Part shown: positions 3,033-30,091 of the stretch, in pieces
Layout: each line of letters opens with the position of its first letter
How positions within the stretch are numbered: the first letter of the stretch is position 1
DNA from: Bacteroidales bacterium
GTDB lineage: Bacteria; Bacteroidota; Bacteroidia; Bacteroidales; P3
Assembly: GCA_024400505.1 (NCBI GenBank)
Contig: JAKSMP010000001.1
Span: forward strand, 5,265 to 69,264
Reading direction: 5' to 3'
DNA: 64,000 nt
Translations under genes and position numbers: made by a program
Notes under the pieces: model-generated
Database searches by the model: none
What the model saw: the letters and a program-made list of their open reading frames with translations, nothing else
Told to the model about the DNA's origin: nothing

Positions 3033-3878
3033 ATGCGTGGTTTAAGAATTATTGTCAATGCTGATGATTTAGGCTATAGCGTCGATGTCGATGCGCAAAT
3101 TGAACGTTGCATTCAGCATGGTATTGTCACTTCGAGTTCTTTGATGGCCAATGCTCCAGGCTTTGATGACGGTGTGCGTATAGCCAAAATGTATCCAAAC
3201 GTATCCATTGGTGCGCACCTCAACTTGGTTGAATTTGCCCCATTGACTAATTTGGATGTCTTTCAGCGATACGGAGTGGCAGATGCTTCGGGTAATTTTA
3301 TAGAAGGAGCTATCTTCTACACCGCCATTGATGATGTGCTGTCGCAGGCTGTTTTTGATGAATGGGATGCTCAATTGAACAAAATAAAACGGTCTGGCGT
3401 TGTGATAGACCATGTGGATAGTCATCAACACACACATGCACTGTTAGGTTTGCATGATACTCTGTGTAAGGTGATGGATAAACACCAGATTACACGTGTT
3501 CGTAGAAAAATAGTGCCGTCAATTCCCATTATGCTATTCGGCAAGAAAACTATAAAAGTGACCTTGGATAAGAGTAATGCTGTTGTTGGGAAGAAAAGAA
3601 ATGTTTTGGTTAGGCGGTTTCAATTATTATCTGTCATAGCATCTAGTATCAAATGGAACATGGTTATGTCAAGAAAATATCAATTGACTGATTCATTTTC
3701 CTCGTTTAGGGAGTTCTATATGAATCGATCTTTAATGATTTCGGGTGGTCGAAATGCTGTAATAGAGCTAATGTGTCACCCAGGTCAGCCCCCTTTTGAT
3801 TGTGAAACTCAGTTGTTAGCAAGTGATAGGAAATGGATAACTAGTCGTGATAAGTTAGTAAACTATAAGATTGTGTAG
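3033..3878 (+). CDS. ChbG/HpnK (YdjC-like) carbohydrate deacetylase
   Basis: N-terminus IIVNADDLGYSVDVDAQIERCIQHGIVTSSSLMANAP and the HVDSHQHTH metal-site motif. Confidence 0.75.
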   Translation: MRGLRIIVNADDLGYSVDVDAQIERCIQHGIVTSSSLMANAPGFDDGVRIAKMYPNVSIGAHLNLVEFAPLTNLDVFQRYGVADASGNFIEGAIFYTAIDDVLSQAVFDEWDAQLNKIKRSGVVIDHVDSHQHTHALLGLHDTLCKVMDKHQITRVRRKIVPSIPIMLFGKKTIKVTLDKSNAVVGKKRNVLVRRFQLLSVIASSIKWNMVMSRKYQLTDSFSSFREFYMNRSLMISGGRNAVIELMCHPGQPPFDCETQLLASDRKWITSRDKLVNYKIV

Positions 3879-3880: not shown

Positions 3881-4840
3881 ATGAAAATTTCGATCATTAT
3901 CCCAGTATTCAATAAGGCTGTTTTTTTAGAATCTTGCCTTCAGTCGGTTATTTGTCAGATAGCCGCCCAAGAGGATGCCTTTGAAATTGTGCTTGTTGAT
4001 GATGGGTCGACGGATGAGTCAGAAGATATTATTCAACGTTATGCCAGCCAGTTTCGATATATAGTGACTTTATCGCAACCGAATTCAGGTGTGTCTGTGG
4101 CACGCAATAACGCCATTAGGGCTGCTACGGGTGATTATGTGTTGTTTTTAGACTCAGATGATGAATTGCTACCTGGGTCACTTCATCAGGTTTATGGGTT
4201 TCTAATGGAACATAGCGAAGTAGATATGCTGGTGACTAGGCAGTTGAGATGCATTGGCGATCAAGAACGATTGGTAAGTGCGCCCAACTTGGAAGTGGGA
4301 AAGTCTTATTCGGGTGTAGAAGCGTATCACCATAAATACGTTCGAACCAATGCGGGTGGAGGAATATGTAGTACCGCTTTTTTGAGGAAGAATCAGCTTC
4401 AATTCCCCGTGGGTATTAGGAATGCTGAAGATACCATTTTCTTTGGTCTGGTTCAGGCTCTGGCAGGTTCGGTGGTTTATCTAGACATATTGCTGTATAA
4501 AATTAATATGCTAGAAGATAGTGCGTCTCGTACCGATGAAACTAAGTTGGCTCATCGGCATGCCGAAACGGTAAATGCTATGGCCGAGATTCGTAATCGT
4601 ATTAGTTGTACAGAAGAACAAAAAGGGATTCTTGAATATATCTTATATCAGTTGCTTAGTAATACGATAGGCCATTTTGTTCGCTCTAAGGAATTGAGGT
4701 ATCGCAATTTTTGTAAAGAAGTTCATCTTGGGCAAATTTTCCCTATTGTGACGCAGCATATGTGTAAGATGAGAAAAAAGGCCAAGATGATGAATTTTTC
4801 TGTTAGGCTGTTCTATATATTAAGTTGGCTAAAGAGGTAA
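3881..4840 (+). CDS. Family 2 glycosyltransferase
   Basis: ISIIIPVFNKAVFLESCLQSV ... VLVDDGSTDES ... FLDSDDEL (DXD) motifs. Confidence 0.85.
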   Translation: MKISIIIPVFNKAVFLESCLQSVICQIAAQEDAFEIVLVDDGSTDESEDIIQRYASQFRYIVTLSQPNSGVSVARNNAIRAATGDYVLFLDSDDELLPGSLHQVYGFLMEHSEVDMLVTRQLRCIGDQERLVSAPNLEVGKSYSGVEAYHHKYVRTNAGGGICSTAFLRKNQLQFPVGIRNAEDTIFFGLVQALAGSVVYLDILLYKINMLEDSASRTDETKLAHRHAETVNAMAEIRNRISCTEEQKGILEYILYQLLSNTIGHFVRSKELRYRNFCKEVHLGQIFPIVTQHMCKMRKKAKMMNFSVRLFYILSWLKR

Positions 4841-4855
4841 TCGTTAGAATACTCA

Positions 4856-5989
4856 TTGTATGAATATTATTTTTGCATTGATATGAAGGGAAAATTGTGC
4901 TATGTTGGTAAGACTGCCCCTCTATATCGTGAGGGTATTTTCACTATGATGGATAGTACCTTTGACATCGATTGGTATTTTGGTGAAACCAAATCCGATA
5001 TCAAGGAAATGGATATTTCGAAGTTGAAGCACACAAACTACTATTGGGTGTTGGGTGATTCTTCCAAAGTTAGTTGGAAAGTTGGTGTTATTTCATTGCT
5101 ATTCAAAAATAAGTATCAGTCGATAATGATGCATGTTGAGACAAGAGCAATCTCGGATTGGTTGTTTGTGCTCTTGAAAAGTTTGTTTTTCCCCAAGAAG
5201 AATTTATATACTTGGGCTCATGGATGGTATGGCAAGGAGTCCCGTTTTGAGGCAGCTGTCAAGTTGTGGATGTATCGTCGGTTGACCAAGATTTTTGTGT
5301 ATGGTCAATACGCCAAAGATTTGATAGTGCAACATGGAATATCCGAAGAAAAGGTGATAGTGATTCATAATTCATTGAACTACGATAAGCAAAAAGAAAT
5401 CCGCGATACGCTACAGCCTTCTGATATTTATAGGAATCATTTCGGTAACGAGCGGCCTACGTTAATCTTCATTGGTCGATTGACTAAAGTTAAAAAGTTG
5501 GATCAGGTATTGCAAGCTTTACTGCAACTTAATGCTAAAGGAGAAATATACAACCTAGTGTTGGTTGGTGGTGGAGAAGAAAAGGCATCATTAGAAAAAC
5601 TATCAGTTGAAATGGGTTTGGGTTCGCAAGTCTGGTTCCATGGTCCGTCGTATGACGAGCGAACAAATGCGGAACTATTGTTTAATGCAGATTTGTGTGT
5701 TTCGCCAGGTAATGTTGGTTTGACGGCTATGCATGCTATGGTATATGGTTGCCCAGTCGTTACACATGATTCTTTTCAATGGCAAATGCCAGAATTTGAG
5801 GCTGTTCATGAGGGTGTAACTGGAACTTTTTTTGAGATGGATAATGTGGATTCGTTGGGTGAATCAATTTCGATATGGATTAATAATTCATATGGGAAAA
5901 GGGAACAAATTAGGCAATCTTGCTTTACTGAAATCGATAGTAAGTGGAATCCCTATGTTCAGATTCAAATTTTAAAAACTAATATTTGA
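4856..5989 (+). CDS. Family 4 (GT-B) glycosyltransferase
   Basis: C-terminal GT-B signature: [14 protein letters not shown] ... [25 protein letters not shown]. The TTG at 4856 is the ORF-track start; the ATG at 4883 is an alternative. Confidence 0.8.
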
Positions 5990-6609
5990 CAATGAATCTA
6001 TCATATGTTTATGCGAAACTATTCAAAAAGTTACATGGGAAATGCGTTCTGAATAGTCAGGTCAATAAAGGGGCTGCAATCGGCACTGGTTGTAATGTGG
6101 TAAGAAGTACTCTGGGACGGTATTCATACATTGGGCATGATAGCCAATGTGTTAATACAGAAATCGGTTCATTTTGTAGTATAAGTGATCATGTTTTTAT
6201 TGGTGGCGCAGAGCATCCACTGGATTGGGTAAGTACTTCGCCCGCCTTTGAGAATGTGGGAGGCAGTTTAATTAATACACGATTTGCATTGCATGAAGTT
6301 CCTGATACGCCAAGAACCCACATTGGAAGTGATGTCTGGATTGGGCACTCGGTGATTATTAAAGCTGGAATTCATATTGGAGATGGTGCAGTTATTGGTG
6401 CTGGTGCCGTAGTGACGAAAGATGTTCCTTCATATGCAATTGTTGGAGGAGTCCCCGCTAGGGTAATAAAATATCGGTTTTCCGAAGAAACAATACAAAA
6501 ACTGCTTTCTCTCAAATGGTGGAATCTATCAGACTCCACTATTCAAAAAGTATCTACATATGCCACTGATGTAGAAAAATTTATTGTTGAATTGTCCAAG
6601 ATTGATTAA
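5986..6609 (+). CDS. Hexapeptide acetyltransferase (CatB/Vat-like)
   Basis: LbH repeats: [49 protein letters not shown]. The likely ATG is at 5992. Confidence 0.8.
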
Positions 6610-6612
6610 TGT

Positions 6613-6744
6613 ATGAAAGTATCTATAATAACAATCTGTTATAACAACGAAAAGGAAATTCGTGCCACCATTGAGTCTGTCTTGTGTCAGATGCATCCCG
6701 ATATTGGGTATATCGTGGTGGATGGTGCATCAGAGAATGCTTAA
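6613..6744 (+). pseudogene. Truncated 43-codon copy of the 5-prime end of the GT2 gene at 9046
   Basis: 6613-6732 aligns base-for-base, with about 10 mismatches, to 9046-9165 (MKVSIITICYNNEKEIRATIESVL...). It then diverges and stops at 6742-6744. Confidence 0.8.
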
Positions 6745-6801
6745 TTGTCGTTTGGAAGATCCTAAAATAGCTTGGTGACCTTGTATAATTACACTACAAT
6801 G

Positions 6802-6809
6802 TATGTTTG
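6802..6809 (+). promoter_or_regulatory. Candidate Bacteroides-type -7 box (TAtgTTTG) for the inserted cassette
   Basis: TATGTTTG matches the TAnnTTTG consensus, 76 nt upstream of the HNH gene ATG. Confidence 0.3.
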
Positions 6810-6884
6810 CAAATGTCTTGTTTGTAGATTCTTTATCGTTTTGGTCGGTTAGTTAGTTGTGTTTGATTTTTCAAAATTGTATCT

Positions 6885-7253
6885 ATGCTTTTATCAGACG
6901 AAACTATTATTCAAGTTTGGAATAAAGCTCGCAAGATTGATGGCTATAATCCTGATATTTTCCGCCAAGATGCGTGCGGGGCATGGATTGTATTTAATAA
7001 GTATGGTCTGCGGGACAATGACTATGGATGGGAAATAGATCATGTTTTCCCGTCTGCATTGGGTGGTGATGATGATATCAATAACCTACGAGCCCTTCAT
7101 TGGAAGAATAATGCCAGCAAAGGCGATGACTATCCTTCTTATATCGCTAGGGTTACTTCCGATGGGACTAAAAATGTTGGCTGTTACAAGTCATTTACAG
7201 TCAATGCCGTTCTGCGTACCTTTATTCAAAGAAAATATATAGATAAATTCTGA
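6885..7253 (+). CDS. Small HNH endonuclease
   Basis: HNH core: EIDHVFPSALGGDDDINNLRALHWKNNASKGD. Stop is 3 nt before the next ATG. Confidence 0.75.
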   Translation: MLLSDETIIQVWNKARKIDGYNPDIFRQDACGAWIVFNKYGLRDNDYGWEIDHVFPSALGGDDDINNLRALHWKNNASKGDDYPSYIARVTSDGTKNVGCYKSFTVNAVLRTFIQRKYIDKF

Positions 7254-7255
7254 TC

Positions 7256-8167
7256 ATGCTTAAGTCTGTTGTTGTTTCTAAACTATTCGGTTACTATGAC
7301 TATAATATCGACCTATCCGTTTCAGAAAGTGATAAGATTCGATTTATCACAGCTCCGAATGGATATGGCAAGACCACTATTTTACGTTTGATTAATGGTT
7401 TGTTCGGGCATCGGCTAGATGAGTTTTTCCTTGTTCCATTTGCGTCAGTTGAATTTATCGTTGACGATGCTGTGTTCTGCGCACGGCAGAATTCCTTACC
7501 CTCTGAACAGACTGATCAGGATGCTGACGATGAACGGATTGTTACTTTTGAATTTGGGTCTGTCGCAGGGACTCATGACTCAATACTATTGCGCTTAGTG
7601 GATTTGAAAAATCCAACCCCAGAGATTGAGCATGTATTGAATCAAATATATTTGTTTTTCTCATCTGAAACTTGTCGATATATTGACGATAAAAGACTGC
7701 TGCACGAAGCTACAGATTCATCTGAATTGCTTCGTCTGGCTGATTTGTTAAAAGATAAACAACTGCATCTCTCAGAGTCTATTACTAAGCAGTTGAATGT
7801 CTTGCAAAAAATTGTTGACAGATGTGATTTTGCAAATAAGATTTTTGAATTAAGTCCACGGTTTGGTTTCCGGTTTGTTGCGAAAGATGAGAACCAGACA
7901 AAGTTAACAATGTTTGATCTTTCTTCTGGCGAACAACATATCTTGTTACTTACACTATATATGCTTTTTGATGCTCCCGAGAAGGCTATAGTGCTTATAG
8001 ATGAGCCTGAAATGTCGCTTCATCTTTCCTGGCAGGGTGATTATCTGAAAAATCTACGTGAGATTGTGAATTTGCGCAATATTCAATGTGTCGTTGCCAC
8101 GCATTCACCATTTATCTTTGCCTCAGAGTACGATATTTCTGTTGATTTGTTTGAACTTACCCACTAG
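7256..8167 (+). CDS. Short ABC-type (SMC/OLD-like) ATPase, AriA/PtuA-like
   Basis: Walker A APNGYGKTT, signature LSSGEQ, Walker B VLIDEPEMSLH, H-loop VATHSP. Only 303 aa. Confidence 0.8.
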   Translation: MLKSVVVSKLFGYYDYNIDLSVSESDKIRFITAPNGYGKTTILRLINGLFGHRLDEFFLVPFASVEFIVDDAVFCARQNSLPSEQTDQDADDERIVTFEFGSVAGTHDSILLRLVDLKNPTPEIEHVLNQIYLFFSSETCRYIDDKRLLHEATDSSELLRLADLLKDKQLHLSESITKQLNVLQKIVDRCDFANKIFELSPRFGFRFVAKDENQTKLTMFDLSSGEQHILLLTLYMLFDAPEKAIVLIDEPEMSLHLSWQGDYLKNLREIVNLRNIQCVVATHSPFIFASEYDISVDLFELTH

Positions 8168-8176
8168 TATCAAGCC

Positions 8177-9049
8177 ATGGCACAACAATCTTTAAGGTTG
8201 GCAGCACAGTCGATGCAGCCACAGCCGGTTAAAGCTTATATTGGCCAGTGTATGAATTCACCAAAGCGCCAAATGGTGTTTTGTTTGGTTGAAGGCTCAT
8301 TTGACAAGCATATTTATGAAAGTCGTCTCAATCAGTCTGATATCGAAGTTCTAATAGCATTTGATGACAGTTTGCATCATAATCGCAATTCTGTCGAATT
8401 TTTGACTGGGGAACTTCGCGATAACTATCCGGCGGGTCGTTTCATTGGAATTAGGGACAAGGATTATCTACCATTTTTGGGGCAACAAGTCCCAGTAGGT
8501 GTGATTGTAACAGATCACCGAGATATTGAAATGACAATATTGTCATCCTCTGATACCGTTGCGGCGATTCCTGATTTAGCACTATGTTTGCCCGATGTGC
8601 TCCAGCATTGCTTTCATTTCGGTCATATACGAATTTTTGCTGAGTCACGGAACCTTCGGAATAAAGTAAATGAAAAACTGAAAATAGTAGCAATATACGA
8701 TCAGAAGGCTAAATTATATGTTAGTGATGTAATCGGTCATTTGCGTTCCAACTATTTCTCAAAGGTGGATAGCGAATCTAATTGTGCCGAACTAGATTCT
8801 TTTATCAATCTACATGAGTTGAATAAATGTTCGGTATATGATGTGTGCAGGGGTCACGATGTCGTTGGATTGTTGGAGTGGGTTTATGGGAATAATTTCT
8901 CTAGGACAGAGCTTGAGTCTCAGATGATCCAAAATTATCCTGCTGGAACTTTCTACCAAACAAATATGTTTCTGCAAATTGAATCTTATTGTAGTCAGTT
9001 TGGGATTGACGCAAAAATCATAAACGAAAATAATTTGAATAAAGCATGA
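8177..9049 (+). CDS. DUF4435/TOPRIM-like nuclease, AriB-like
   Basis: TOPRIM-style acidic motifs: FCLVEGSFDKHIY (Glu) and IGIRDKDYL (DxD). Stop TGA overlaps the ATG of the GT2 gene at 9046. Confidence 0.6.
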   Translation: MAQQSLRLAAQSMQPQPVKAYIGQCMNSPKRQMVFCLVEGSFDKHIYESRLNQSDIEVLIAFDDSLHHNRNSVEFLTGELRDNYPAGRFIGIRDKDYLPFLGQQVPVGVIVTDHRDIEMTILSSSDTVAAIPDLALCLPDVLQHCFHFGHIRIFAESRNLRNKVNEKLKIVAIYDQKAKLYVSDVIGHLRSNYFSKVDSESNCAELDSFINLHELNKCSVYDVCRGHDVVGLLEWVYGNNFSRTELESQMIQNYPAGTFYQTNMFLQIESYCSQFGIDAKIINENNLNKA

Positions 9050-9813
9050 AAGTATCAATAGTCACAATCTGCTATAACAACGAAAAGGAAATTCGTGCCA
9101 CCATTGAGTCTGTCTTGAGTCAGACGCATCCCGATATTGAGTACATCGTGGTGGATGGTGCATCAAAAGATAATTCGTTGTCGATAATAAATGAATATAA
9201 GGACAGGATTGCCGTTATCATCTCCGAACCCGACCATGGCATGTATGAGGCTTTGGACAAAGGCTTCCAACGCGCTACGGGTGACGTGATTGGCATGATT
9301 CATTCGGGTGATAGGTTGCATGACGAAAACGTGATAGCCGATATCGCCAAGTTCTATGAAACCCACGATGTGGATATGACTTATGGCCATAGTCGCATCG
9401 TTAATGCTCAAGATGTGGCTCAACGTATCAACAAAAGTCCTGAATACAGCATGGGGTTGATTCGCAGGGGCTGGATGCCTTCGCATCAGAGCATCTATTG
9501 CAAGAAAAAAGTGTTTGACCTTTGTGGCTATTATCGTAATGATTTAGGCGGAGGCGGCGATTATGAATGGTTTATCCGTTCGTTCTACAAGCATGGAAAG
9601 GAGCTGAAGATTGCCCGCGTGGATAGATTTGTGGTGAAATTTGCGTTGGGCGGTCAGAGCACTTATAACTATAGCCACAAGTTGTCGAAGAAACATTTTG
9701 ACTATGTGAAGAGATGTTGGCAGTTAAATGAGTTGAAGCCTCCCTGCGGCATCGTATACTGGATGTTCTCGCGCAAGGTTAAACAGTTTGTACTAGCAAA
9801 ATTATCCAAATAA
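9046..9813 (+). CDS. Family 2 glycosyltransferase (intact copy)
   Basis: VSIVTICYNNEKEI ... YIVVDGASKDNS ... GMIHSGDRL motifs. Confidence 0.85.
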   Translation: MKVSIVTICYNNEKEIRATIESVLSQTHPDIEYIVVDGASKDNSLSIINEYKDRIAVIISEPDHGMYEALDKGFQRATGDVIGMIHSGDRLHDENVIADIAKFYETHDVDMTYGHSRIVNAQDVAQRINKSPEYSMGLIRRGWMPSHQSIYCKKKVFDLCGYYRNDLGGGGDYEWFIRSFYKHGKELKIARVDRFVVKFALGGQSTYNYSHKLSKKHFDYVKRCWQLNELKPPCGIVYWMFSRKVKQFVLAKLSK

Positions 9814-10412
9814 TGGCTGATAATAATTCAAAGAAATTGAGTCTTACGTATAGGATGATGCGTAAGATTGGCATGAACTATTCTGAAGAGGAGTATGGTC
9901 AGGTTACGCTGTGGACTGTAATCAAGAGAGTGTATAAGACTTATAGGGATAGTTTTCTGCTGAAATATATGATGAATTCGTGGCTGCTATCTCCTCTGGG
10001 TCCAAGAAAACTGCGACCTTGGGTGTTGAAGAAGATCGGTTGCCACGTGGGTAAGGATGTGTTTGTGGGCGATTCAGTAAAGATTGATGCCGGGCATGCT
10101 GATTTGATATATATTGATGATCACGCCCATATTGCTGGTGGCACGAGACTTTTGTGTCATCAGCGCGATTTGAGCGACTATCATGTTGGGGATGACTATG
10201 CTAAACTCGGTTATAAGTTGAAGCCTATTCATCTGTGCAAGGGTTCACTTGTAGGTATGGAGAGCTTTGTGATGCCTGGAGTGACCATAGGAGAAGGTGC
10301 TATCGTAGGCGCTGGTTCTTTGGTGACAAAAGACGTACCAGCCTGGACTATAGCCACAGGTCGTCCGGCCAAAGTTGTAAAAACGATTACACCGAGAGAA
10401 ATTGAGCAATGA
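9813..10412 (+). CDS. Hexapeptide O-acetyltransferase (WbbJ-like)
   Basis: LCKGSLVGMESFVMPGVTIGEGAIVGAGSLVTKDVPAW. Paralog of 2451..3020. Confidence 0.8.
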   Translation: MADNNSKKLSLTYRMMRKIGMNYSEEEYGQVTLWTVIKRVYKTYRDSFLLKYMMNSWLLSPLGPRKLRPWVLKKIGCHVGKDVFVGDSVKIDAGHADLIYIDDHAHIAGGTRLLCHQRDLSDYHVGDDYAKLGYKLKPIHLCKGSLVGMESFVMPGVTIGEGAIVGAGSLVTKDVPAWTIATGRPAKVVKTITPREIEQ

Positions 10413-11284
10413 AAATATTGACTTTTGATATCGAGGAGTGGTTCCTGAATCAGGAATATTTTGGTAATGACCCAAACTTGGTTAAGCAATACGACAGTTA
10501 TCTGAACCAATTGTTGGATAAGCTAGACGAACGGGAACAGAATGCTACCTTTTTTTGTGTGGGTGGTATGGCCCGTGAGTTTCCGGATGTGGTGAAGTTA
10601 ATCGCCTCCAGAGGCCACGAAGTGGGCTGCCATTCCGATAAGCATGCATGGCTCAATACATTCACTAGAGATGAATTGATGGAGGACACTCGCCAAGCCG
10701 TAGATTCATTGGAGCAGTTGTTGGGTACCAAGGTGATAAGCTATCGTGCTCCAGCCTTTACAGTTGGTGACAAAAATAAGTATGCTCTAGAGGTTCTGGC
10801 AGCTTGTGGAATCCAGTATGACGCTTCTATTTTCCCGGCAGTGCATTCGTTGGGTGGATTTGCGGATTTCAAGTGCAAAACGCCCTGTATTATTCGCTTT
10901 GGCGGAATCGATATTAAGGAATTTCCGATATGTACAACCCAATTGCTAGGACATGAAGTGGCTTATTCCGGTGGTGGGTACTTCCGCTTCTTCCCTTTAT
11001 GGTTCGTGAAAAAGGAAATGCATAATAGCGACTATTCAATGACCTATTTCCATATCGGTGATCTGGTGAAAAGCGAGCCGATAAGTAAGGATATGTTTGC
11101 TGAATATTATAAGATGGATCCTACCCTAAAAAATAGAGCAGTTCGTTATCTGAAGTCAAATATTGGAAAGTCCGGTTCATTTAATAAGTTGATGGGTTTG
11201 TTGGACAAATTCAGGTTTTCGAATGTTAAGACTGTTGCCACTCAAATAGACTGGAGTACTATGCCCATTATCGACTTAAAGTAA
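10409..11284 (+). CDS. Polysaccharide deacetylase (NodB fold, DUF3473-type)
   Basis: MKILTFDIEEWF start, ATFFCVGGMAREFPDVV, HEVGCHSDKH metal motif. Confidence 0.75.
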   Translation: MKILTFDIEEWFLNQEYFGNDPNLVKQYDSYLNQLLDKLDEREQNATFFCVGGMAREFPDVVKLIASRGHEVGCHSDKHAWLNTFTRDELMEDTRQAVDSLEQLLGTKVISYRAPAFTVGDKNKYALEVLAACGIQYDASIFPAVHSLGGFADFKCKTPCIIRFGGIDIKEFPICTTQLLGHEVAYSGGGYFRFFPLWFVKKEMHNSDYSMTYFHIGDLVKSEPISKDMFAEYYKMDPTLKNRAVRYLKSNIGKSGSFNKLMGLLDKFRFSNVKTVATQIDWSTMPIIDLK

Positions 11285-11562
11285 GTTTCGGAAGGCTTTT
11301 GGTGCTCGTTTTGTCGTTATAATGGTGCCCCTTTGTGAGCATTGTTCCTTATTATGGTAATGACGATTGGGTCGAAGAATTGAGTTTGTCGTACATCAAG
11401 GTCTCATTCTATTGGCCAGTAATGGCAGTGAATGAAGGTGTACTTGTATATGTTTTCCTAATTTGATTACTCTATGAGTATGATGTTTTTATGAGACCAA
11501 AGTAAACTATATATTCATTAATTTCCGTTAAACTTATTCAATTTTCTAAGCATAGGTGTTTT

Positions 11563-14256: not shown

Positions 14257-15026
14257 TGAGTTATAATCCGTTTAGTTTACAAAATAAAGTTATCATTGTC
14301 ACTGGGGCTTCGTCTGGTATTGGTGCCCAATGTGCCATTGATTGTTCCAAGATGGGGGCAAAAATAGTGCTGGTTGGGCGTAATCAAGAACGACTCAATG
14401 GTACATTGTCTCTTTGTGAAGACTCGTCAAAACATACGGTGCTTCCATTGGATCTGACCAATGGCGCAGCCCTCAAAGATTCAATTAAGTCTGTTGTGGA
14501 AACAATGGGAAGAATCTCTGGTGTGTTGAATTGCGCTGGAATGTCTTCTGTTACTCCGCTAAAGTTGGTCAATGATGAATTGATGGACAATTTCTTTAGC
14601 ACAAATGTGTACTCGGCGATTAATTTAACTAAGGAGGTCTCCCGGGTCGGCATTTTTGATAAAGAAAAGGGGTGTAGTGTTGTTTTCTTCTCTAGCATTA
14701 TGGGACTCTGTGGTGAAAAAGGGAAAACATTATATAGTGCCACCAAAGGTGCACTGATAGCTGCTGCTCGCTCTATGGCTTGCGAATTGGCAAAAAATAG
14801 AATCCGTGTAAATGTTGTGAGCCCGGGTGCTATAGAAACGCCTATCAATGCAAATCAACCTTATATGAATGATCCTGACTTGAGGAAACATCTAGAGGAT
14901 AAGCATCTTTTGGGCATAGGAACCTGCGCTGATATTTCAAATGCGTGTATCTATTTACTAAGTGATGCGTCTAAATGGGTCACGGGTCAGAATCTAATTG
15001 TTGATGGAGGCTATACGGCGAAGTGA
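14256..15026 (+). CDS. SDR oxidoreductase (FabG-like ketoreductase)
   Basis: VTGASSGIG cofactor motif and YSATKGAL catalytic motif. Confidence 0.85.
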   Translation: MSYNPFSLQNKVIIVTGASSGIGAQCAIDCSKMGAKIVLVGRNQERLNGTLSLCEDSSKHTVLPLDLTNGAALKDSIKSVVETMGRISGVLNCAGMSSVTPLKLVNDELMDNFFSTNVYSAINLTKEVSRVGIFDKEKGCSVVFFSSIMGLCGEKGKTLYSATKGALIAAARSMACELAKNRIRVNVVSPGAIETPINANQPYMNDPDLRKHLEDKHLLGIGTCADISNACIYLLSDASKWVTGQNLIVDGGYTAK

Positions 15027-15051
15027 AAATAATTATCAATATTAATTCAAG

Positions 15052-16173
15052 GTGTTAAATATCATGCCAAATACAAAACATATAATAAAGTCAGTTTTGA
15101 CCAACCATCGGATGAAACGAGCTGCAAAAATGTCAAAATCACAGCGTATCATGTTCCCTCCTCTGACAAAGAATGAGTGGAATGAGGTGAAGAAAATCTG
15201 GGGGGGGGTAAAAATGGACAGTTCTACACTCAAAATCTTTCCTAAAGGATATCAGATTTACAAAGGGCTTGAAGGATTTGATCCCCAATATTGTCCAAGT
15301 ACAATCTTCGAACCCTATATTTTGCGTGGTTTGAATTTACCTGTTCATGTTATGGGAATGGAACATAAAGCTATTTTGGACATGATATTCCCAGGAATTA
15401 AGCAGCCTATTACTGTGATTAAACGTATTAATGGCACTTTCTTTGATAAGGAGAGAAATATTCTTGATATTCAAGCTGCCTACAAGTATGTTTCAAGCCA
15501 GGATGCTTTATGTATCAAGCCGACTGCTTTTTCTGCTGGCGGCAATTCCGTGAAGAAAATCGTAGGGAGTGCATTAGACTTTCGTCAATTTGAGGAGATT
15601 GTTCTTGAATATGGTGAGAATTTTATTGTGCAAGAGATCCTTCATCAATCACCCAAAATGTCAAGGCTTTCAGCTACATCATTGAACACATTTAGGGTCT
15701 CATCGTTGTTCATCAATGGTAAGTGCTCAATTTGCACTATTATATGCAGAATTGGTCGAGGTGATTCATTCGTTGACAATGGTGCCAAGGGAAACTATAT
15801 TGTAGGTGTGGATTTTGACGGTCAATTCCGCGAGTACGCATACGATTTTGCTTATGATCGATTTTCTCAGACAGATACAGGAATAAAGTTTGGCGATATC
15901 AAAATTAATGAGATAGCTGAACTTGTTAAACTTGTTGAAACTTTTCACCCTAAGTACATTCCTAATTGTGGATTTTGTGGCTGGGATTTTGCACTCGATG
16001 AAAATAACAGTTGGAATCTTATTGAGGTGAATTTGTATGCACCTGGTATCGAGTTCGAACAAATTTGTCCTGGGAAGTCGTTATTTGGTGAAAGAACTGG
16101 TGAAGTAATAGAATATGTTAATCACCATCAGCCGTCTTTACTTGCAATTATGACTAGTCTAGGTTATGCATAA
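15052..16173 (+). CDS. Sugar-transfer-associated ATP-grasp ligase (ATPgrasp_ST-like)
   Basis: IKPTAFSAGGNSV ... FIVQEILHQSPKMSRLSATSLNTFRVSSL ... WDFALDENNSWNLIEVNL. Paralog of the next gene. Confidence 0.6.
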   Translation: MLNIMPNTKHIIKSVLTNHRMKRAAKMSKSQRIMFPPLTKNEWNEVKKIWGGVKMDSSTLKIFPKGYQIYKGLEGFDPQYCPSTIFEPYILRGLNLPVHVMGMEHKAILDMIFPGIKQPITVIKRINGTFFDKERNILDIQAAYKYVSSQDALCIKPTAFSAGGNSVKKIVGSALDFRQFEEIVLEYGENFIVQEILHQSPKMSRLSATSLNTFRVSSLFINGKCSICTIICRIGRGDSFVDNGAKGNYIVGVDFDGQFREYAYDFAYDRFSQTDTGIKFGDIKINEIAELVKLVETFHPKYIPNCGFCGWDFALDENNSWNLIEVNLYAPGIEFEQICPGKSLFGERTGEVIEYVNHHQPSLLAIMTSLGYA

Positions 16174-17281
16174 TTTAATTACATATGATATTATGAAAAA
16201 TTCATTTAGGCACTTTTATTTTACTCATATTGATCCTAGAAGAATTGTTAGTAGGATTAATGACGGAAAACGTGATTTGAATAGTGCAATTGCTAGAGGT
16301 ACACCAATTTTAGAGGATCAAAGAAATGTAATTCTTGATTTTTGGAAGCCTTATACAAGAACATTTATTGAGAAAAAATCGTTTGATATTCGTTGGTTTG
16401 ATGTATACAACAAGACAAACCTTTTCGGGAATGATTTGAAATTATATATACCGGATGGCTATTACTATAGTGTAATTGACACTTTTTTTAATGACCCATT
16501 GCGTTGTAAATATATGGATGATAAGAATCTATATGATCTTTATTTCCATGATGTCAATCAGGCCAAGATGATCTGTCGAAAAGAAAAGGGTCTATTTCTT
16601 GATGGTGAGTATAGGGTGATTACAATGCAAGATGCCGTTAACCTATGTAGTAAGTGTGGTCAAGTAATTATCAAACCATCTGTTGAATCTTGGGCAGGGG
16701 CAGGGATCAAAAAGTGGAATGCTGAGAATGACAATATTTCTGTATTGGTTGACGCATTGAGCACTCCTGGGTCATTTGTGATTCAAGAAATCATCAAACA
16801 ACATTCTTGTTTATCACAATTCAATGCTACTTGTGTGAATACCATGAGGCTTGTGACCTTGTTCTTTGAAGGTGAGGTTCATGTGGTAACGGCAGTTGCA
16901 ATTATGGGTGGAAAAGGTGCTTTTACAAATCATCTGCATAGAGGAGGCTTAATTTGTGGTATACACTCGGATGGGAGCCTGTTCCATACTGCTTTTGATG
17001 GAAATTTAAATATGTACAAACAGCATCCGAATGGGCCTATCTTTTCTGATTGTAAGATTCTAAATTTTAATAAATGTGTTGATCTGGTTAAGTCATTATC
17101 ACCAAGATTATTTGGAATGTCTAAACTTACTGCGTGGGATATTACCATTGATGAGACCGGAGAGCCTTTATTAATTGAGGCAAATTTCGAGTATGGGGGA
17201 ATTGTTCAAAAGGCAGGTGGCCCAATTTTTGGAGAGATGACAGAGTCAATATTAAAGACTGTTCATAAGGGTAAGGTTTAA
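16166..17281 (+). CDS. Sugar-transfer-associated ATP-grasp ligase, second paralog
   Basis: IIKPSVESWAGAGI ... FVIQEIIKQHSCLSQFNATCVNTMRLVT ... HPNGPIF ... AWDITIDETGEPLLIEAN. Confidence 0.6.
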   Translation: MHNLITYDIMKNSFRHFYFTHIDPRRIVSRINDGKRDLNSAIARGTPILEDQRNVILDFWKPYTRTFIEKKSFDIRWFDVYNKTNLFGNDLKLYIPDGYYYSVIDTFFNDPLRCKYMDDKNLYDLYFHDVNQAKMICRKEKGLFLDGEYRVITMQDAVNLCSKCGQVIIKPSVESWAGAGIKKWNAENDNISVLVDALSTPGSFVIQEIIKQHSCLSQFNATCVNTMRLVTLFFEGEVHVVTAVAIMGGKGAFTNHLHRGGLICGIHSDGSLFHTAFDGNLNMYKQHPNGPIFSDCKILNFNKCVDLVKSLSPRLFGMSKLTAWDITIDETGEPLLIEANFEYGGIVQKAGGPIFGEMTESILKTVHKGKV

Positions 17282-22364: not shown

Positions 22365-22499
22365 TGATGTCAAAAGCCGGCGAGTGTCGCGATGCGACTC
22401 ACGCTGGCTTAATCTGAGACATAACATATTCACCTGCACAAGTGACCGATTGGTTCCGTGCGATATGGGCAGGTGGGACAATATATACAATCAAAGATT

Positions 22500-23084
22500 A
22501 TGGATGAGAACATCAAATCTATCTACATAGAAATAGAAGAACGTTATGTAAAGATTGCTTGGACTCATAAGATTCAAGAAATTCAGGCCGGTTTATACTT
22601 AAAGAAAAGTAATTGTAATAAGTGGTGTATGGCAATATTTAATGGCGTTACAACTACTACTGCTTTTGTTACAGTTGTTACAAGTTTATTAGAAAGTATA
22701 GATGCAGACTGGGTCATGCCAGTACTTACATCTGTACTAGCTGTTATCTCTACCATTCTTACATTGAGATATAAGGATAGTGTATTAGATGAGAGTGCAT
22801 CGGCCTGTAAACAATATGCTGCTAAATGTCGCAATCTTCGGAACAAATACGAGGCTCTTCTGACGGATATTATGACTGGAAGATTTGTAAATGTTGAGGT
22901 GATTAGTTCCAAACGTGATTTGATGACGGAAGTGGAAAATGAACTGTTTGCAGGAGATATAGCCCCACATACAACAGAAAAAGCTGTTGCAATTGCAAAA
23001 AAAGCTTTGTTAGAAAATGGAGATTCGTTGACAACAGAATCGGAAATAAAAGCTATTGTACCTCAACATTTGCAAGTGTTATAA
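22500..23084 (+). CDS. SLATT-like 2TM effector protein
   Basis: Two adjacent TM helices (WCMAIFNGVTTTTAFVTVVTSLL and WVMPVLTSVLAVISTILTL) followed by a helical tail. Sits 15 nt upstream of the SMODS gene. ATG at 22500. Confidence 0.6.
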   Translation: MDENIKSIYIEIEERYVKIAWTHKIQEIQAGLYLKKSNCNKWCMAIFNGVTTTTAFVTVVTSLLESIDADWVMPVLTSVLAVISTILTLRYKDSVLDESASACKQYAAKCRNLRNKYEALLTDIMTGRFVNVEVISSKRDLMTEVENELFAGDIAPHTTEKAVAIAKKALLENGDSLTTESEIKAIVPQHLQVL

Positions 23085-23099
23085 ATAACTACAGAGTAT

Positions 23100-23906
23100 A
23101 TGTACACAGTTACCAAAAGAGGCGAAGTTATAAGCAGGGTGCAACGCAGTTTAATCTCTTTAAGGTATCGAAAAATAACAAAAGCTATAAACACAGAGTT
23201 CTGGGGGTCCACGAGTGAAACTGAGCATAGTTTTTATGTGGGCTCTTATGGACGAGGTACAGCTATTGACACAAGTGATATTGATATATTGGTAGAATTG
23301 CCAAAAGATGTATTTCAACGTTTCGATGCTCACAAAGGGAATGGCCAATCAAGATTGCTTCAAGCAGTAAAAGCTGCTATTGAAAGCACCTATTCAAGAA
23401 GCATGGTGCGCGCAGACGGACAGGTGATAGTCGTTACCTTTTCTGATGGAATAAAGTTCGAAATCTTACCTGCTTTTAGACATATTGTTTTTGGGTATTG
23501 GGATGGTACCTATGAATATCCAGACTCAAATATGGGTGGTCGATGGCTGACAACAAATCCAAAAGCAGAACAAGATGCAATGAAATCTCGAAATGAGTAC
23601 AGTAATGGGCTTTTATATGATACGTGTAAACACATGAGGTACATCCGTGATAATTATTTTAGTGGCTACCATCTTCCGGGTATTGTAATTGATAGTTTTG
23701 CTTATCATTATATAAAAGATTGGCATTGGTTAAGTGAAGGTGAATCACCTTCGGATAAACCAACTGGCACTTACGAGAAAGGTCTATACCAAACATGTCC
23801 ATCATGCAGTTTTAATCTGAATGCTCCTGGAAGTGAAATGAAGGTCGACACTTCCAGGTGTATTGATGTGCTGAATAAAGTTTTGAATTTTATGTCCAAA
23901 GATTAA
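23100..23906 (+). CDS. SMODS/CD-NTase-type nucleotidyltransferase
   Basis: Pol-beta NTase core: YVGSYGRGTAIDTSDIDILVELP, plus the downstream acidic strand ADGQVIVVTF. Confidence 0.7.
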   Translation: MYTVTKRGEVISRVQRSLISLRYRKITKAINTEFWGSTSETEHSFYVGSYGRGTAIDTSDIDILVELPKDVFQRFDAHKGNGQSRLLQAVKAAIESTYSRSMVRADGQVIVVTFSDGIKFEILPAFRHIVFGYWDGTYEYPDSNMGGRWLTTNPKAEQDAMKSRNEYSNGLLYDTCKHMRYIRDNYFSGYHLPGIVIDSFAYHYIKDWHWLSEGESPSDKPTGTYEKGLYQTCPSCSFNLNAPGSEMKVDTSRCIDVLNKVLNFMSKD

Positions 23907-23957
23907 TTGTTAAATCCACACTCGCTAAGCGGATGTGGGCTTAAGATAGAGATGTCT

Positions 23958-24233
23958 TACTTCTTTCTCAAATCAAGGATGACTTGATGTCTGTTCTTTG
24001 ACTTGTACTTACGACAACTCACATGAATCCAGTAGTCACAACCGTTTGGTGCCTCCATGACCAACAGATCAAAGTCGATGTAGCGCTCGAGGAAGTCGAA
24101 CCAATTCTTGGCAATGTCTATATCAGTGTGCTGACGGTTGTATTCCCATGAGGTGTAGGGATCGAGAGGGATGTGGTTAGTATCGCCCTGATAGTAGGAG
24201 GCTTCTTCGTTTCTCCTCTGGGTGTGATTTATG
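23958..24233 (-). pseudogene. Start-less open frame, unidentified gene remnant
   Basis: The minus frame reads ...YYQGDTNHIPLDPYTSWEYNRQHTDIDIAKNWFDFLERYIDFDLLVMEAPNGCDYWIHVSCRKYKSKNRHQVILDLRKK*. There is a stop upstream and no initiator codon. Confidence 0.3.
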
Positions 24234-24399
24234 GCTCCGTCCTAACTGCTGTAGGTCTCCTGCTGCTGTTTAGCGTGATCGAGAAGATACCCGAAGCCAT
24301 AAAAGGCTGGGAAATCAGTCAAGATCAGCAAAGAAGACTTTTCCGCAGAAGTCGGTACTGAAACTAAAGAAAGTTACCCGAACTTACCCTATGACAAGC

Positions 24400-24439
24400 C
24401 CTTTCCGTACATTCGCTCGTGCGGGCGAATGTACGGAAA
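24400..24439. repeat. Perfect 16-bp stem hairpin
   Basis: CTTTCCGTACATTCGC, 8-nt loop, GCGAATGTACGGAAAG. Confidence 0.85.
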
Positions 24440-24562
24440 GTGTGATGCCGTACCGTCTGCGAGTGTCGAGCAAAGCGCATCTCTCGCCGGCTTTCCAGCT
24501 TATGGAAGCTTGAACCGGATCGTTACCGGTTGCTGGAGCTAATAATAAAACAGCATTCTTAT

Positions 24563-27500
24563 ATGGCTAAGATTTATAATCCCAAAAGTAAACCAGTCTA
24601 TCATATAGTTCAACAGTTTTTGAATGCTCGTTTTGATAATAAAGAGTGTTCAAGAGTTGCTGCAAATTTGAAGTATGACGTGACAGGCAGAGTAATAGGT
24701 CAATCCTTAAATGACTTATTCCGCGTTTCTCCTCGTTATAAGGAATTGCTATGGGGTAATCAATTTCCTCGGTCAATTAATGACTTGGGTGAGGGGAATA
24801 GTTATTTTTTCAAATCAAATTCAATTTTCGCTGACATTGATTGGCTATACGTTCAAATTAGTAAGTATCATTCAGAAATATCAAAATTTGTAACGATACG
24901 AGATAAAGTAGAACAGTCAATTTTATTAGGACATTACGATACTGCCCATGCTTTATTGAAGGATATTCATAATGAGTTCGGAGAAAGCATTTGGTATTAC
25001 GAGATGAAAATGTTAGTCTATAGCTATTCTGGAAATGAAAGGCTAGCTCTTGAAATGCTAAGTGAGGTGAACAGGCATAAGGAAAACTCCAAATACGGTT
25101 TTGTTCCTTTCTTACTTTCTTATTTATTCAAGAGATGTTCAAAGTCGTACTCTGCCTATGCATATGACTCAGAGTTAGAGGGACGATTTAAATTAAATAG
25201 AACTGATTTTCAAAAGGATAGGTATGTTTATTATCTATTTAGACTTAATCTATATAAATCAAATGTTGTAGACGATTTGTCTCCTGTTCTAATCATGGAA
25301 GCGACAAATTCGTTGATCGATAGATATCAGTCTGTTATCAATATTTTGCGTCTGTCTTTTGCTTACTCAGATAATAATGCTATTAAAACATTATATGCTT
25401 TATATGCTTCAAAATTCTATAGGAAGACGAATGATAGACTATTGACTCCTATGGTTGCATATAGAAATATGAATAATCTACATTCAGATTATTACAATCT
25501 AAGATTGATTAATCTCTTAGATGATTATTATCGTGGTAATTATACATCCTGTATAGATAAGTGCAAGTCTTATGTGGTTGAAGACGTCCCAAACTTTGAC
25601 ATAATAAAAATATATTGTCGATCATTAATAGCATTGAAAGAAAAATATTCACAGATATGCACGAATGCTGAGTCAATATTAAATCAAATAGCGTATTATT
25701 CCTTCAAAATTATGTCAGAGACTGAGTACGAAGATAATATACATCGTTTGTATCAGTTGAATAAAAACATTTATGGGCTCTCTTTCGCCTCTGGACTAAG
25801 TTGTTTTATTGAATCAGAGTCCAATCACAAATCAAATAGTATTCATTCTGCTATTTCTTTGTGTTGTTATGATCCTTTGTTCTGTAATTATTTGGATGAA
25901 GATGATGCAAAACATAGATATGTACAGTTGGGCAAGGAACAGTTCGGCTCAATTGGAATTCTAGATTATGTAACTGATAGAATTAATAAAACTGTTTCAA
26001 CAAATACATACGTAACCAAGTATATACGAGATATTGATGCTGCGGTAAACTCTTTTAATGAGGGTCTATATGAGGATGCGCTTGATAAATGGAAAGTCAT
26101 ATTAGAAGATAATAAGGAAACACTTCCTATTGTTCAATCTGCTATAGAGTACATTTATCGGTGCTATGAAGAGCTAGATAAGAAACAAGAAGCAATTAGT
26201 CTATATGTAAAACACTATTTAAAAGGGAAATCATATGTTTCACATATTGATACTAAATTATTGACGACGCAATTATATAAAGACAAGTATAAGAAAGGTG
26301 TTAAAAACGGATTAGATCTTCAGTTGTTTGTCTTCATAAATGAAAACGAGGAAGAACGGAAAAGTGCAGTATTGGAAAGATTCTGTTTGTACCATGACGT
26401 TAATAAAGTCTCTGATTTGATTCCTGAGATTGAGTCAACAGAAAAGCGAGATAAGTTAGAGTTGTATTTGTATCTATTGGCATCTGATGATATTCTTCGA
26501 CACATGCCTTATGTGACAAGTACAAAAAAAATGTTGGACGAGCAGCAAATCCTAGCACAATATCTTTCTTCTCTAAGTGATTCAAAACATCTAAAACAGT
26601 ATGTAGAATTACAACAGGAGATAATTGAAACTATGATTGTATATCAGAACGTTAGAAAGATTGACGAAAGTAAGATATTTGTCAATCAAGGCGCTCTGTT
26701 TAGGTATGAATATAAAGAATATGAAAGTCTATATCAGCAGTTTAAAAATCAACTGGCGTTATCTGGAGAGACAAATCAGTACTATATTGTAAACACGCTC
26801 TCTTCAAGTGAATATCAAACAACAGACCCGACTCTCATTCATGCTCCAGTTCGTTTTACAAGCAAAAGTTTTATAGATTCTGCCTGTCAAGTTTTTTCGG
26901 TGCTAAGAGAGAAATTCCTTTTTAGCAAATTCGGATTAAAGACATATTTAAGTACGAGAATACGTCACGGTGTATTCGAAGGTGTTCTTCGTTCTGGATT
27001 TGACAGCTTACATCTTTTGTTGCTAACCGAGAATAATAGATATGTTCCCATTAGTTATTGGGGTGATAGATATGGCTTATTAAGTACTGAGCAAAGTGAA
27101 TTAATGAGAATACTTGGAAAGTTTTCTTCTGGCGTCAATTATACAATCGACCAATTCAAGGAAGATGTTTTACAGGTAAAAGTCTCTGACAATGAGCCTG
27201 GGTTATTTGATTTCAGACTTTCCCCTGACGACATGTGTTATGCAACTGTATCTGCAGAAACCAGATCCAATAGTTTTGAAGAGTTCTGTTATTTAATAAT
27301 GGAATATTTGCTTAATATGACGAATAAAAATCTCATAAATGTGCGTAATAAAATAGAAGAAGATCTGAAGAATTCATTTATGAGGTTAGTTGACAATCTT
27401 GAACAGGATGTTCAACAATTCTCAAAACTGCATTTTTATAGTGATTTAAAATTAGCCGTAATTAGTGCGCGTTCTGAGGTGAATCAAAAGATTGCTCAAG

Positions 27501-28009: not shown

Positions 28010-28455
28010 ATAGAATTTTGATCGTTGAAGATTTGCCAGAAAAGGCAGACGAAATAAAGGTGGTAATTGCAAAAGCATTTCCAAATATTGAAATTGAAGA
28101 GAGGACTTCTTATCATTCTGCAATTGAGGAGATTTACCAAAATCATCCTCGGTATAAGCTAATTCTCCTTGATATTTCAATGTCTACATTTGATGTTAAT
28201 GTAGAAGAAAATGGAGGTCTGCCAGAATCCTTAGCTGGGAAAAGAATACTTCAGGGAATGTATTTGCGGGACATCCCAACCAAAGTAAAAGTGGTAACCA
28301 TGTATGAAAGCTTTGATGGTAAAAGTATCAAGGAACTTGATAGAGAACTAAAAGAAGATAATCCAGATAGCTATGATGGATTCATTTTCTTCTCTTTCAA
28401 AAAGAGTGAATGGAAAAAGCAGTTAGTTGAATATTTAAACACAGTCATATGTTAA
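28006..28455 (+). CDS. dtcB: Detocs DtcB-like stand-alone receiver (REC) protein
   Basis: ILIVEDLPEKADEI ... YKLILLDISM (acceptor Asp) ... KVKVVTMYES. No output domain. Confidence 0.7.
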   Translation: MNRILIVEDLPEKADEIKVVIAKAFPNIEIEERTSYHSAIEEIYQNHPRYKLILLDISMSTFDVNVEENGGLPESLAGKRILQGMYLRDIPTKVKVVTMYESFDGKSIKELDRELKEDNPDSYDGFIFFSFKKSEWKKQLVEYLNTVIC

Positions 28456-29705: not shown

Positions 29706-29709
29706 TAGT

Positions 29710-30000
29710 ATGGACATAATCTTCTTTGTACTAATCCGTGTCGCCATCGGTGCGCAAGAGAGCCTCTCTCGCTTGCCATAGGCACACGAGTGAGGCGAGT
29801 TATATGAGCTGGCGCAAAAGCAGTCGCTGGTAGGTGTCTGCTTCGCTGCCCTTCAGCGGCTTGGCTTTGATTCGGATGTGGGCTTTGCCCGAATCGGCAT
29901 GAGCGAGATGTTGTATCTAACTTGGGTGGGTATGGCTGCAACGATTCAGCAGAAGGATGAAGTGGTGATAAATACTATTATGAGCACTATGGTTTTGTAA
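29710..30000 (+). pseudogene. NTP_transf_5 N-terminal remnant with two in-frame stops
   Basis: MDIIFFVLIRVAIGAQESLSRLP*AHE*GELYELAQKQSLVGVCFAALQ... parallels the N-terminus of 20203..21282. TAG at 29779, TGA at 29791. Truncated after about 95 codons. Confidence 0.6.
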
Positions 30001-30091
30001 GGGATATTCAGATCTGTCTTTAACGATGTGTAACAATCGTCATCTTCGATGGTGTACAGATTGCTATGTAATGCGATTTGCAGAAATCTAT

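Follow-up and report, generated by a model that had tools for sequence, protein, structure and literature searches.

Within a polysaccharide operon of the window, by which is meant the whole 64,000-nucleotide (nt) stretch of a Bacteroidales contig analysed here, a cassette of three genes was nested between a hexapeptide-repeat acetyltransferase gene (5986..6609; Pfam Hexapep) and a GT2 glycosyltransferase gene (9046..9813, 255 aa; Pfam Glycos_transf_2, 94 bits), all on the forward strand. The trio encoded an HNH nuclease of 122 aa (6885..7253; Pfam HNH, HNH_4 and HNH_5), a compact ATP-binding cassette (ABC)-type ATPase of 303 aa (7256..8167; AAA_21/AAA_15, recognized by Pfam, PADLOC and a PDB profile search) and a DUF4435-family, Toprim-like protein of 290 aa, distantly similar to AriB (8177..9049; PADLOC AriB model and family members). 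Ahead of the trio, the acetyltransferase stop was followed after only 3 nt by a GT2 stub of 43 codons ending in TAA (6613..6744), which matched positions 1-38 of the 168 of the Glycos_transf_2 profile (E 1.2e-7). A non-coding spacer or leader of 140 nt (6745..6884) containing a candidate promoter motif separated the stub from the HNH gene. At the other end, the stop of the third gene overlapped the ATG of the intact GT2 gene as ATGA.

A direct-repeat scan over 5.5-10.5 kb of the window, followed by pairwise alignment, returned a single long direct repeat, with copies at 6602..6750 (about -11 to +137, counted from the GT2 ATG) and 9035..9183, 149 nt long, 88% identical and spaced by 2433 nt. 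Identity reached 93% over the first 120 nt (8 differences), then decayed and faded by about +137. Clear homology began at both GT2 start codons (6613 and 9046), while upstream similarity was patchy in the alignment and may be read as homology that begins some 11-13 nt ahead of the ATG. As the runner-up in the same region spanned only 24 nt at 75% identity, the 149-nt repeat was far beyond chance. Neither an integrase nor a transposase was found among the three open reading frames (ORFs) between the repeats in Pfam and PADLOC scans, the repeat scan found no inverted terminal repeats of note, and the locus did not qualify as a recombinase-borne mobile element. The guanine-cytosine content of the cassette was not distinguishable from that of its flanks. 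The initial annotation had described direct repeats both opening at a GT2 ATG, the left one a dead 43-codon stub and the right one the intact gene overlapping the stop of the TOPRIM gene, with a three-gene cassette free of integrase and transposase in between and the operon preserved; all of this was borne out, the duplication leaving the GT2 reading frame intact.

The right junction also affected the third protein. Its last nine residues (INENNLNKA), encoded by the junction DNA at 9020..9046, were aligned with no counterpart in any homologue, and residues 285-290 were modelled with a predicted local distance difference test (pLDDT) score below 50. Part of this tail-coding stretch resembled DNA found upstream of the GT2 start in other copies.

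The repeat-cassette structure is real and no assembly artefact. In the independent Logan unitigs of the source run, depth was even over the region (16 at 4800-6669, 14.8 at 6655-9102 and 15.5 at 9088-11400), and a 45-nt unitig identical in both repeat copies reached a depth of 33, as expected for two copies. The left junction was crossed by a single unitig (6312-6812) in a horse-gut metagenome and the right junction by another (7933-9587, L098) from a different study. Stub, cassette and GT2 were also found in five runs of study P2, two horse-gut runs and run X10, so that the arrangement recurred in at least three other metagenome studies. The two copies differed at 18 of 149 positions; therefore neither is a copy-paste of the other. 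The initial annotation had named an assembly duplication as grounds for abandoning its proposal, and the unitig evidence contradicted this. The exact GT2 protein of the window was found in one assembly only, and the nearest named relatives of the window were unclassified Bacteroidales metagenome-assembled genomes (MAGs), at 73-79% identity in a conserved 952-aa protein.

A cassette-free counterpart of the locus was present in L001, a Bacteroidaceae MAG from yak omasum that held the best GT2 homologue among species-representative genomes. L001 was collinear with the window over six genes, with protein identities of 46% for GT4, 58% for the first acetyltransferase (L001 9379-10005), 72% for GT2 (over 255 aa, the homologue being 257 aa long), 70% for the second acetyltransferase, 51% for the deacetylase and 57% for Bac_transf. 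In this genome the first acetyltransferase gene overlapped the GT2 start, with neither stub nor cassette. Since the acetyltransferase stop lies 3 nt from the stub ATG in the window, the stub holds the original position of the gene start. On this comparison the cassette is an insertion into the acetyltransferase-GT2 junction, which duplicated about 150 bp of its target and kept the operon whole.

A joint of 6272 to 9046 in runs X3 and X4 was considered as an empty site and rejected: it belonged to a variant in which 1.2 kb of different DNA, namely a diverged acetyltransferase 3' end and a second acetyltransferase, precedes the stub. A second joint, 6727 to 9225 in X7, was weakly supported, with a depth of 3.7 and 20 letters on its shorter side.

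A second lineage carrying the cassette was recovered from study P2 as three unitigs, L096 for the left flank, L097 for the cassette and L098 for the right junction. Its stub-to-cassette and cassette-to-GT2 junctions were the same as in the window, and the 140-nt leader matched only these lineages (97% to that of P2) and nothing else. Upstream of the stub (L096 10001-11380 against window 5986-6612), the P2 lineage encoded a diverged acetyltransferase 3' end and an extra hexapeptide acetyltransferase of 217 aa, followed by a 105-nt spacer, and similarity to the window resumed only about 13 nt before the stub ATG. Further away, upstream of window position 2450, the L096 locus held different genes (LicD, ATP-grasp and PGA_cap); the comparison of L096 with the window shows a modular mosaicism of capsule loci.

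The four repeat copies, left and right in the window and in P2, were compared with L001 as outgroup. Fixed differences between left and right copies amounted to one site in the first 120 nt and seven more beside the junction (+121 to +132). All others were singletons: five in the functional right copy of P2, all at third codon positions, while those of the window stub included two non-synonymous changes, at +80 and +95. With a single fixed difference in 120 nt, the copies were either nearly identical when made or homogenised later, and the suggestion that the cassette had carried a foreign copy of the gene start was not borne out.

Divergence between the window and P2 was distributed as a mosaic. 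It was 0.9% over 6640-7698, rose to 14% over 7699-7855 (within a patch of 159 nt at 7697-7855, ATPase codons 148-200, with proportions of synonymous and non-synonymous differences, pS and pN, of 0.28 and 0.10), fell to 2% over 7856-8697 and reached about 10% from 8698 onward (about 9% in the cassette part, 8698-9035). Synonymous divergence (dS) was 0.013 in the HNH gene, 0.36 in GT4 and 0.56 in the GT2 body. Changes were also sharp inside the repeat: left copies had 5 differences within their first 27 nt and 4 within the 110 nt that follow, and right copies were identical over their first 47 nt and about 11% diverged thereafter. Outside the 14% patch, which lies in the variable middle region of the protein, the ATPase genes of both lineages were about 1% apart, a pattern that indicates that the patch was brought in from another, more distant allele of this cassette. 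Because divergence is mosaic and breaks sharply inside both copies of the GT2 start, homologous recombination has repeatedly reshuffled the locus, cassette included. The earlier proposal of insertion or exchange by homologous recombination stood to that extent; the cassette itself may have entered as a circle integrating by one crossover, by homology-facilitated illegitimate recombination or by some other route. The simpler picture of a clean transferred block of one cassette plus one repeat was weakened by the diverged 3' third and the internal 14% patch.

The three proteins displayed affinities to known defence proteins. In the HNH protein, D52-H53, N67 and N75 were invariant across eight homologues (47-71% identical to the window protein), and the family profile matched only Cas9 and Cas8f HNH domains in PDB. 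It was the most conserved protein of the trio, 65-71% identical to six homologues and 47-56% to two others, with the ATPase and the Toprim protein at about 53-56%. The ATPase scored 68.3 bits against AAA_21 and 59.4 bits against AAA_15, and its Walker A, LSSGEQ signature, Walker B and H-loop were intact and invariant in the homologue alignment. In PADLOC it matched PtuA (2.6e-24, residues 3-290 against 4-294 of 404, near end to end) and AriA (8.8e-24), while its score against the NCBIfam PtuA model was 47 bits for a cut-off of 500. The family profile placed AriA first in PDB (8ux9/8v45, E 1e-20), followed by PtuA (8ee4, 8e-11). The alignment with AriA spanned residues 154-293 against 290-430; as it was confined to the C-terminal 140 residues or so, the insertion and coiled-coil parts of AriA are missing or different.

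The third protein matched the PADLOC AriB model weakly (21.8 bits, E 4e-5), as did 17 of 21 family members, and 16 of the 21 matched Pfam DUF4435 (best 6.9e-10). Five acidic residues (E39, D43, D94, D96 and E118) were invariant in the 21 sequences. The Toprim acidic residues of AriB are E26, D30, D88, E90 and E122 (PMC11464382), and the spacing of the first four of the family (E39, D43, D94 and D96) equals that of AriB. An AlphaFold2 model of the protein reached a pLDDT of 90, and its weak Foldseek matches included Toprim-containing proteins (gyrase B, topoisomerase I and 2i5r). The sequence profile gave noise only against PDB. Taken together, the Pfam, PADLOC, PDB-profile and family AriB matches support the earlier description of the cassette genes as putative defence-type nuclease and ATPase genes.

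Homologues of the trio formed a conserved unit. The family of the third protein is small: a word-indexed search with this protein returned 39 matches (nearest 55% identical), a full profile search of 1.84 billion representatives returned 98 at E ≤ 1e-30, and gene contexts were examined for eight homologues and 80 metagenomic loci. The order HNH, ATPase, DUF4435 was found in almost every locus with enough upstream DNA and held in all of 62 clusters formed at 90% identity, including members no more than about 25% identical. In the close clade, defined by a third protein at least 38% identical to that of the window, all ten loci with readable flanks (the window, L081, L082, L085, L088, L092, L095, L100, L101 and L102) adjoined or lay within polysaccharide gene clusters, L088 at a cluster edge and L100 and L101 being readable on the downstream side only. 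Most of these trios were nested co-directionally between biosynthetic genes, with upstream and downstream neighbours such as EpsG and GT2, a 152-aa gene and DegT, Wzt and LicD, a TupA ATP-grasp gene and GT2, or a hexapeptide transferase and DegT, and with Polysacc_synt_2 where only the downstream side could be read. The initial annotation had considered such nesting in a capsule operon unusual; for this family it was not, all nine other readable loci of the close clade being likewise at polysaccharide clusters, and living in polysaccharide operons characterises this clade and is no accident of this genome. Nucleotide identity among cassettes of different loci was 65-75% and ended at the three ORFs, which argues for old, separate residences and not for one recent spread. 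Conserved cassette ends or att-like sites were absent from the cross-locus comparison.

More distant members were found in mixed surroundings. Among those about 30% identical, L099 lay at the 5' edge of a polysaccharide cluster, and L128 adjoined genes for an Mrr_cat-nSTAND3 protein and for another AAA_21 ATPase. Members of the distant clade (about 25-28%) had AAA_15/21 ATPases, ThsA_Macro, HipA_C, PDDEXK_9, PIN and a Septu-like ATPase and HNH pair as neighbours, and also adjoined capsule-edge genes (epimerases, Polysacc_synt_2, WecA-like and Bac_transf). No relative of the trio was found on viral contigs in IMG/VR, and none of 80 loci picked only for a GT2 homologue (1.18 Mb, 80 species) held the trio.

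Flanking duplications were rejected as a general hallmark of the trio: no flanking repeats surrounded the nine other close-clade loci, and those of the distant clade were multi-copy intergenic elements, not gene starts. Some distant-clade trios were bracketed by such locus-specific elements. L145 held three copies (3488-3652, 4285-4449 and 7107-7289), each opening with a short hairpin (ACTCGCGCAGCGAGT), and two copies each were found in L166 (3722-3872 and 6902-7079) and L151 (956-990 and 3928-3962), both with tandem tracts of the GGTTAAT/GGTTAAG type nearby. The neighbours were of defence type: in L166 a Septu-like pair and a PIN gene, in L145 DUF3990 and DUF4062. These bracketed loci look like a cassette array.

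Three further observations concern trio-bearing loci and their neighbouring genes. The trio-bearing capsule locus of L081 held a second defence-like pair between the deacetylase and Bac_transf (14546-16236), made up of a 167-aa ORF and a gene for a 395-aa protein that matched AAA_21 weakly and AAA_15 faintly in Pfam; polysaccharide operons may collect more than one such insert. The same 152-aa ORF, devoid of Pfam matches, directly preceded the trio in L082 (6176-6634), L092 (4209-4667) and L094 (79-537), and DegT followed it in L082 and L092, the downstream gene being cut and unannotated in the short contig L094. As the capsule loci of L082 and L092 differ in other respects, five genes may move there as one larger block. 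Finally, the near-identical contigs L082 and L083, from sister samples, differed in gene calls (L082 3766-4892 against L083 3777-4892): the upstream DegT was split into two ORFs in L082, and the DegT downstream of the trio was uncalled in L083 (8862-9983), where small reverse ORFs were called instead. These differences may reflect frameshifts or pseudogenisation of flanking sugar-pathway genes.

The observations on the window and on the family can be joined in one account, which we hold with moderate confidence: the trio would be a PARIS-like defence cassette with an additional HNH nuclease, inserted once with a duplication of its target and later reshuffled by homologous recombination. Defence is the most likely function of the trio, judging by homology and gene neighbourhood; an abortive-infection role is suggested because distant members keep the company of defence islands and because the proteins have AriA, PtuA and AriB affinities. 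Under this account, the trio would act as an abortive-infection system of the PARIS or OLD-class-4 type against phages or mobile elements, with an oligomer of the ATPase holding the nuclease or nucleases inactive until an invader-derived trigger releases or activates them, and with two nuclease partners instead of one. The module would have entered the tight acetyltransferase-GT2 junction of a capsule or O-antigen operon in an uncultured gut Bacteroidales, with some 150 bp of target sequence duplicated (about -13 to about +137 of GT2), so that a dead stub came to lie to the left of the cassette and a complete GT2 to its right, the latter presumably translationally coupled to the last cassette gene. 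The arrangement would be old and inherited, later recombination among diverged versions of the locus having reshuffled the block and its flanks.

Expression of the cassette together with the operon is the default inference. The cassette was co-directional with the operon, with gaps of 2 nt between HNH and ATPase genes, 9 nt between ATPase and third genes and -4 nt between the third gene and GT2; gaps to flanking genes in the other close-clade loci were mostly about 20-190 nt. Transcription with the operon is thus the probable mode, possibly helped by a promoter in the 140-nt leader, where TATGTTTG at 6802-6809 fits the Bacteroides -7 consensus.

Several results weigh against this account. Neither PADLOC nor the literature searched yielded a named defence system laid out as these three genes are; nor was any report found linking DUF4435, PARIS or defence systems to capsule loci, or describing an HNH, AAA and DUF4435 trio, which is a weak negative. 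PtuB models were matched neither by the HNH protein of the window nor by any of its eight homologues, which matched Cas9 HNH domains only. The ATPase falls short of AriA by about 160 residues and can be aligned with it only over the C-terminal lobe. The third protein of the window had no Pfam match at E ≤ 0.1, DUF4435 included, and Foldseek of its model against PDB gave no match at E ≤ 0.001 and no AriB-like structure, so that its relation to AriB is remote. As regards expression, the motif TAnnTTTG occurred at chance frequency in the window (59 found against 48.6 expected from shuffles), and the promoter at 6802 proposed by the initial annotation is therefore only a candidate: the motif is there, its match being at chance level. 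A terminator scan found no terminator-like sites above chance, and none of the RNA runs searched for co-transcription held the region. Run searches with the cassette, the left flank and the right flank gave only cassette-bearing forms, with no empty site in the window's own lineage; the insertion is therefore deduced from a different species, and the proposed check for an acetyltransferase gene directly followed by GT2 was answered positively in L001 and negatively in the same lineage. Lastly, more than one candidate mechanism may account for the duplication.

One of these candidates, close to the model of the initial annotation, makes the cassette a mobile unit in its own right. Recombination between the two repeats would loop out a circle of 2.43 kb, made of the cassette and one hybrid repeat, and after transfer a single, Campbell-type crossover into any sufficiently similar GT2 start would remake stub, cassette and intact GT2 with no recombinase required. 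The absence of a recombinase from the unit fits such a route, as does the position of the breaks, the low-divergence block starting in the left copy (about +27) and the highly diverged GT2 body in the right copy (about +47), a span of about one cassette plus one repeat. The upstream context is wholly different from about -13 (one acetyltransferase in the window, two and a 105-nt spacer in P2), the two copies share a 45-nt identical stretch, and some distant-clade trios are bracketed by direct repeats too. However, ordinary double crossovers between two cassette-bearing loci give the same pattern, the divergence of about 9% at 8698-9035 and the internal 14% patch make the block something other than one clean unit, and the nine other close-clade loci have no flanking repeats. 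None of the contig sets showed a circle or an empty-site junction, but rare variants are lost from contigs. The circle is a possible route, but a rather improbable one.

The polysaccharide address of the close clade, which we consider a more interesting result than the single insertion, raises a further possibility. Capsules decide which phages adsorb to gut Bacteroidales, and capsule loci are phase-variable and often exchanged in well-studied species. The trio clade could be a resident passenger of Bacteroidales capsule and O-antigen operons, co-transcribed with them and moved by homologous recombination through conserved or duplicated starts of biosynthetic genes. If transcribed with the operon, the trio would be expressed only when the capsule, often phase-variable, is ON. 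Inheritance, exchange and switching would then act jointly on receptor type and matching defence. Such capsule-linked immunity is offered tentatively, as a doubtful extension of the defence account.

It is less probable still, and on the whole quite unlikely, that the trio is a selfish stabilising or homing module and not an immune system. It could be an addiction element, similar to toxin-antitoxin pairs, that penalises loss or replacement of its capsule locus, or the HNH nuclease could cut cassette-free alleles and the cassette be copied in through repair. The strict tie of the close clade to highly exchangeable polysaccharide loci would suit either version, Pfam annotates AAA_21 as a putative AbiEii toxin domain, the HNH protein is the best conserved of the three, and the target duplication could be a repair scar. 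On the other hand, cross-locus homology ends at the ORFs with no conserved flanking target sequence, and because the neighbours differ, no common homing site is visible; distant members lie in ordinary defence islands, and the divergence between cassettes points to a long stay in these loci, not to a recent spread. That the repeat and the nested cassette result from mis-joined contigs in the assembly or binning of a MAG is practically out of the question: the window does derive from a gut-metagenome assembly, and the de Bruijn graph of the source run is formally ambiguous around the exact 45-nt repeat, but the copies differ in sequence, depth is even over three unitigs and doubled on the shared 45-mer, and single unitigs from other samples cross both junctions.

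The defence account, if correct, has several implications. A defence module within capsule operons would link the choice of receptor and intracellular immunity, in expression and in inheritance. With two nucleases, HNH and Toprim, combined on a single small ABC ATPase, the trio would widen the range of immune systems powered by ABC ATPases. The stub and the duplication provide a readable, dated example of a non-autonomous cassette entering an operon without breaking it.

Other regions of the window held further genes of interest. The capsule locus spanned position 1 to about 21.3 kb and was directly followed by a defence-like island (22458-31187), which comprised a SLATT_4 two-transmembrane effector (22458-23084), a 268-aa ORF (23100-23906) and a PNP_UDP_1 phosphorylase-superfamily protein (28449-29705). 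It also held an ORF of 1159 aa (24530-28009) that matched nothing in Pfam and an unmatched ORF of 290 aa (30315-31187). Genes of mobile-element type were encoded on the reverse strand at 34783-37714, namely a primase-like protein (DUF6371 and CHC2 zinc ribbon, 34783-35997) and an AAA_25 ATPase (36569-37714), after which came further polysaccharide genes, DegT (39428-40705) and Polysacc_synt_2 (42845-44833).

Among known processes and systems, Campbell-type integration and homology-facilitated illegitimate recombination, both mechanisms of laboratory and transformation genetics, are candidate origins of the first duplication. They share with the locus an insert flanked by a direct duplication of its target, with no recombinase involved, one copy being truncated and the other functional. 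The locus differs from them in that neither a circular intermediate nor one-sided homology was seen, the event being ancient and overprinted by recombination. As in defence islands, distant trio members are found among defence-type genes, and the window itself has the SLATT_4 and PNP_UDP_1 genes past its capsule locus; unlike in such islands, the close clade is mostly nested within polysaccharide operons, co-directional and tightly spaced.

Septu (PtuA/PtuB, including retron-associated PtuAB) likewise pairs an ABC ATPase with an HNH nuclease, and the best PADLOC match of the trio ATPase was the PtuA model, while the PDB search favoured AriA over PtuA. In contrast to Septu, which has a PtuB-type HNH gene downstream of PtuA, the HNH gene of the trio lies upstream of the ATPase gene, encodes 122 aa only and matches no PtuB model, and a DUF4435 gene is always present.

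An AAA_15 score of at least 32 bits or an AAA_21 score of at least 27 bits is the detection rule for the PARIS ATPase (Rousset et al. 2022, PMC9122126), and the partner was sought as an adjacent protein matching Pfam DUF4435 (PF14491) with at least 27 bits. The trio ATPase passed both ATPase thresholds (AAA_21 68.3 bits, AAA_15 59.4 bits), and lies, as in PARIS, immediately upstream of a DUF4435-family protein; the window's own third protein stayed below the DUF4435 threshold, and its model had no AriB-like structure match. PARIS is often phage- or satellite-borne (PMC9122126, PMC11464382), whereas no trio relatives were found on the IMG/VR viral contigs, so that the trio does not share this phage- or satellite-borne hotspot setting. 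The trio also departs from the two-gene or fused PARIS architecture with its AriA of about 55 kDa: three genes are conserved, an HNH gene leads the operon, and the ATPase measures 303 aa against 464 aa for AriA, most of the middle region of AriA being missing. PARIS is further characterised by its response to an anti-restriction protein, which activates it, by cleavage of tRNA and by growth arrest. AriA is nevertheless the best solved relative of the ATPase profile, and the third protein family carries the acidic constellation of the AriB Toprim domain (E-x3-D ... D-x-D ... E). The trio is apparently a conserved, unnamed relative of PARIS and Septu and, by their defining tests, a member of neither; by inference from these likenesses, it would work most like PARIS (OLD-family class 4), while its ATPase and HNH half resembles Septu.

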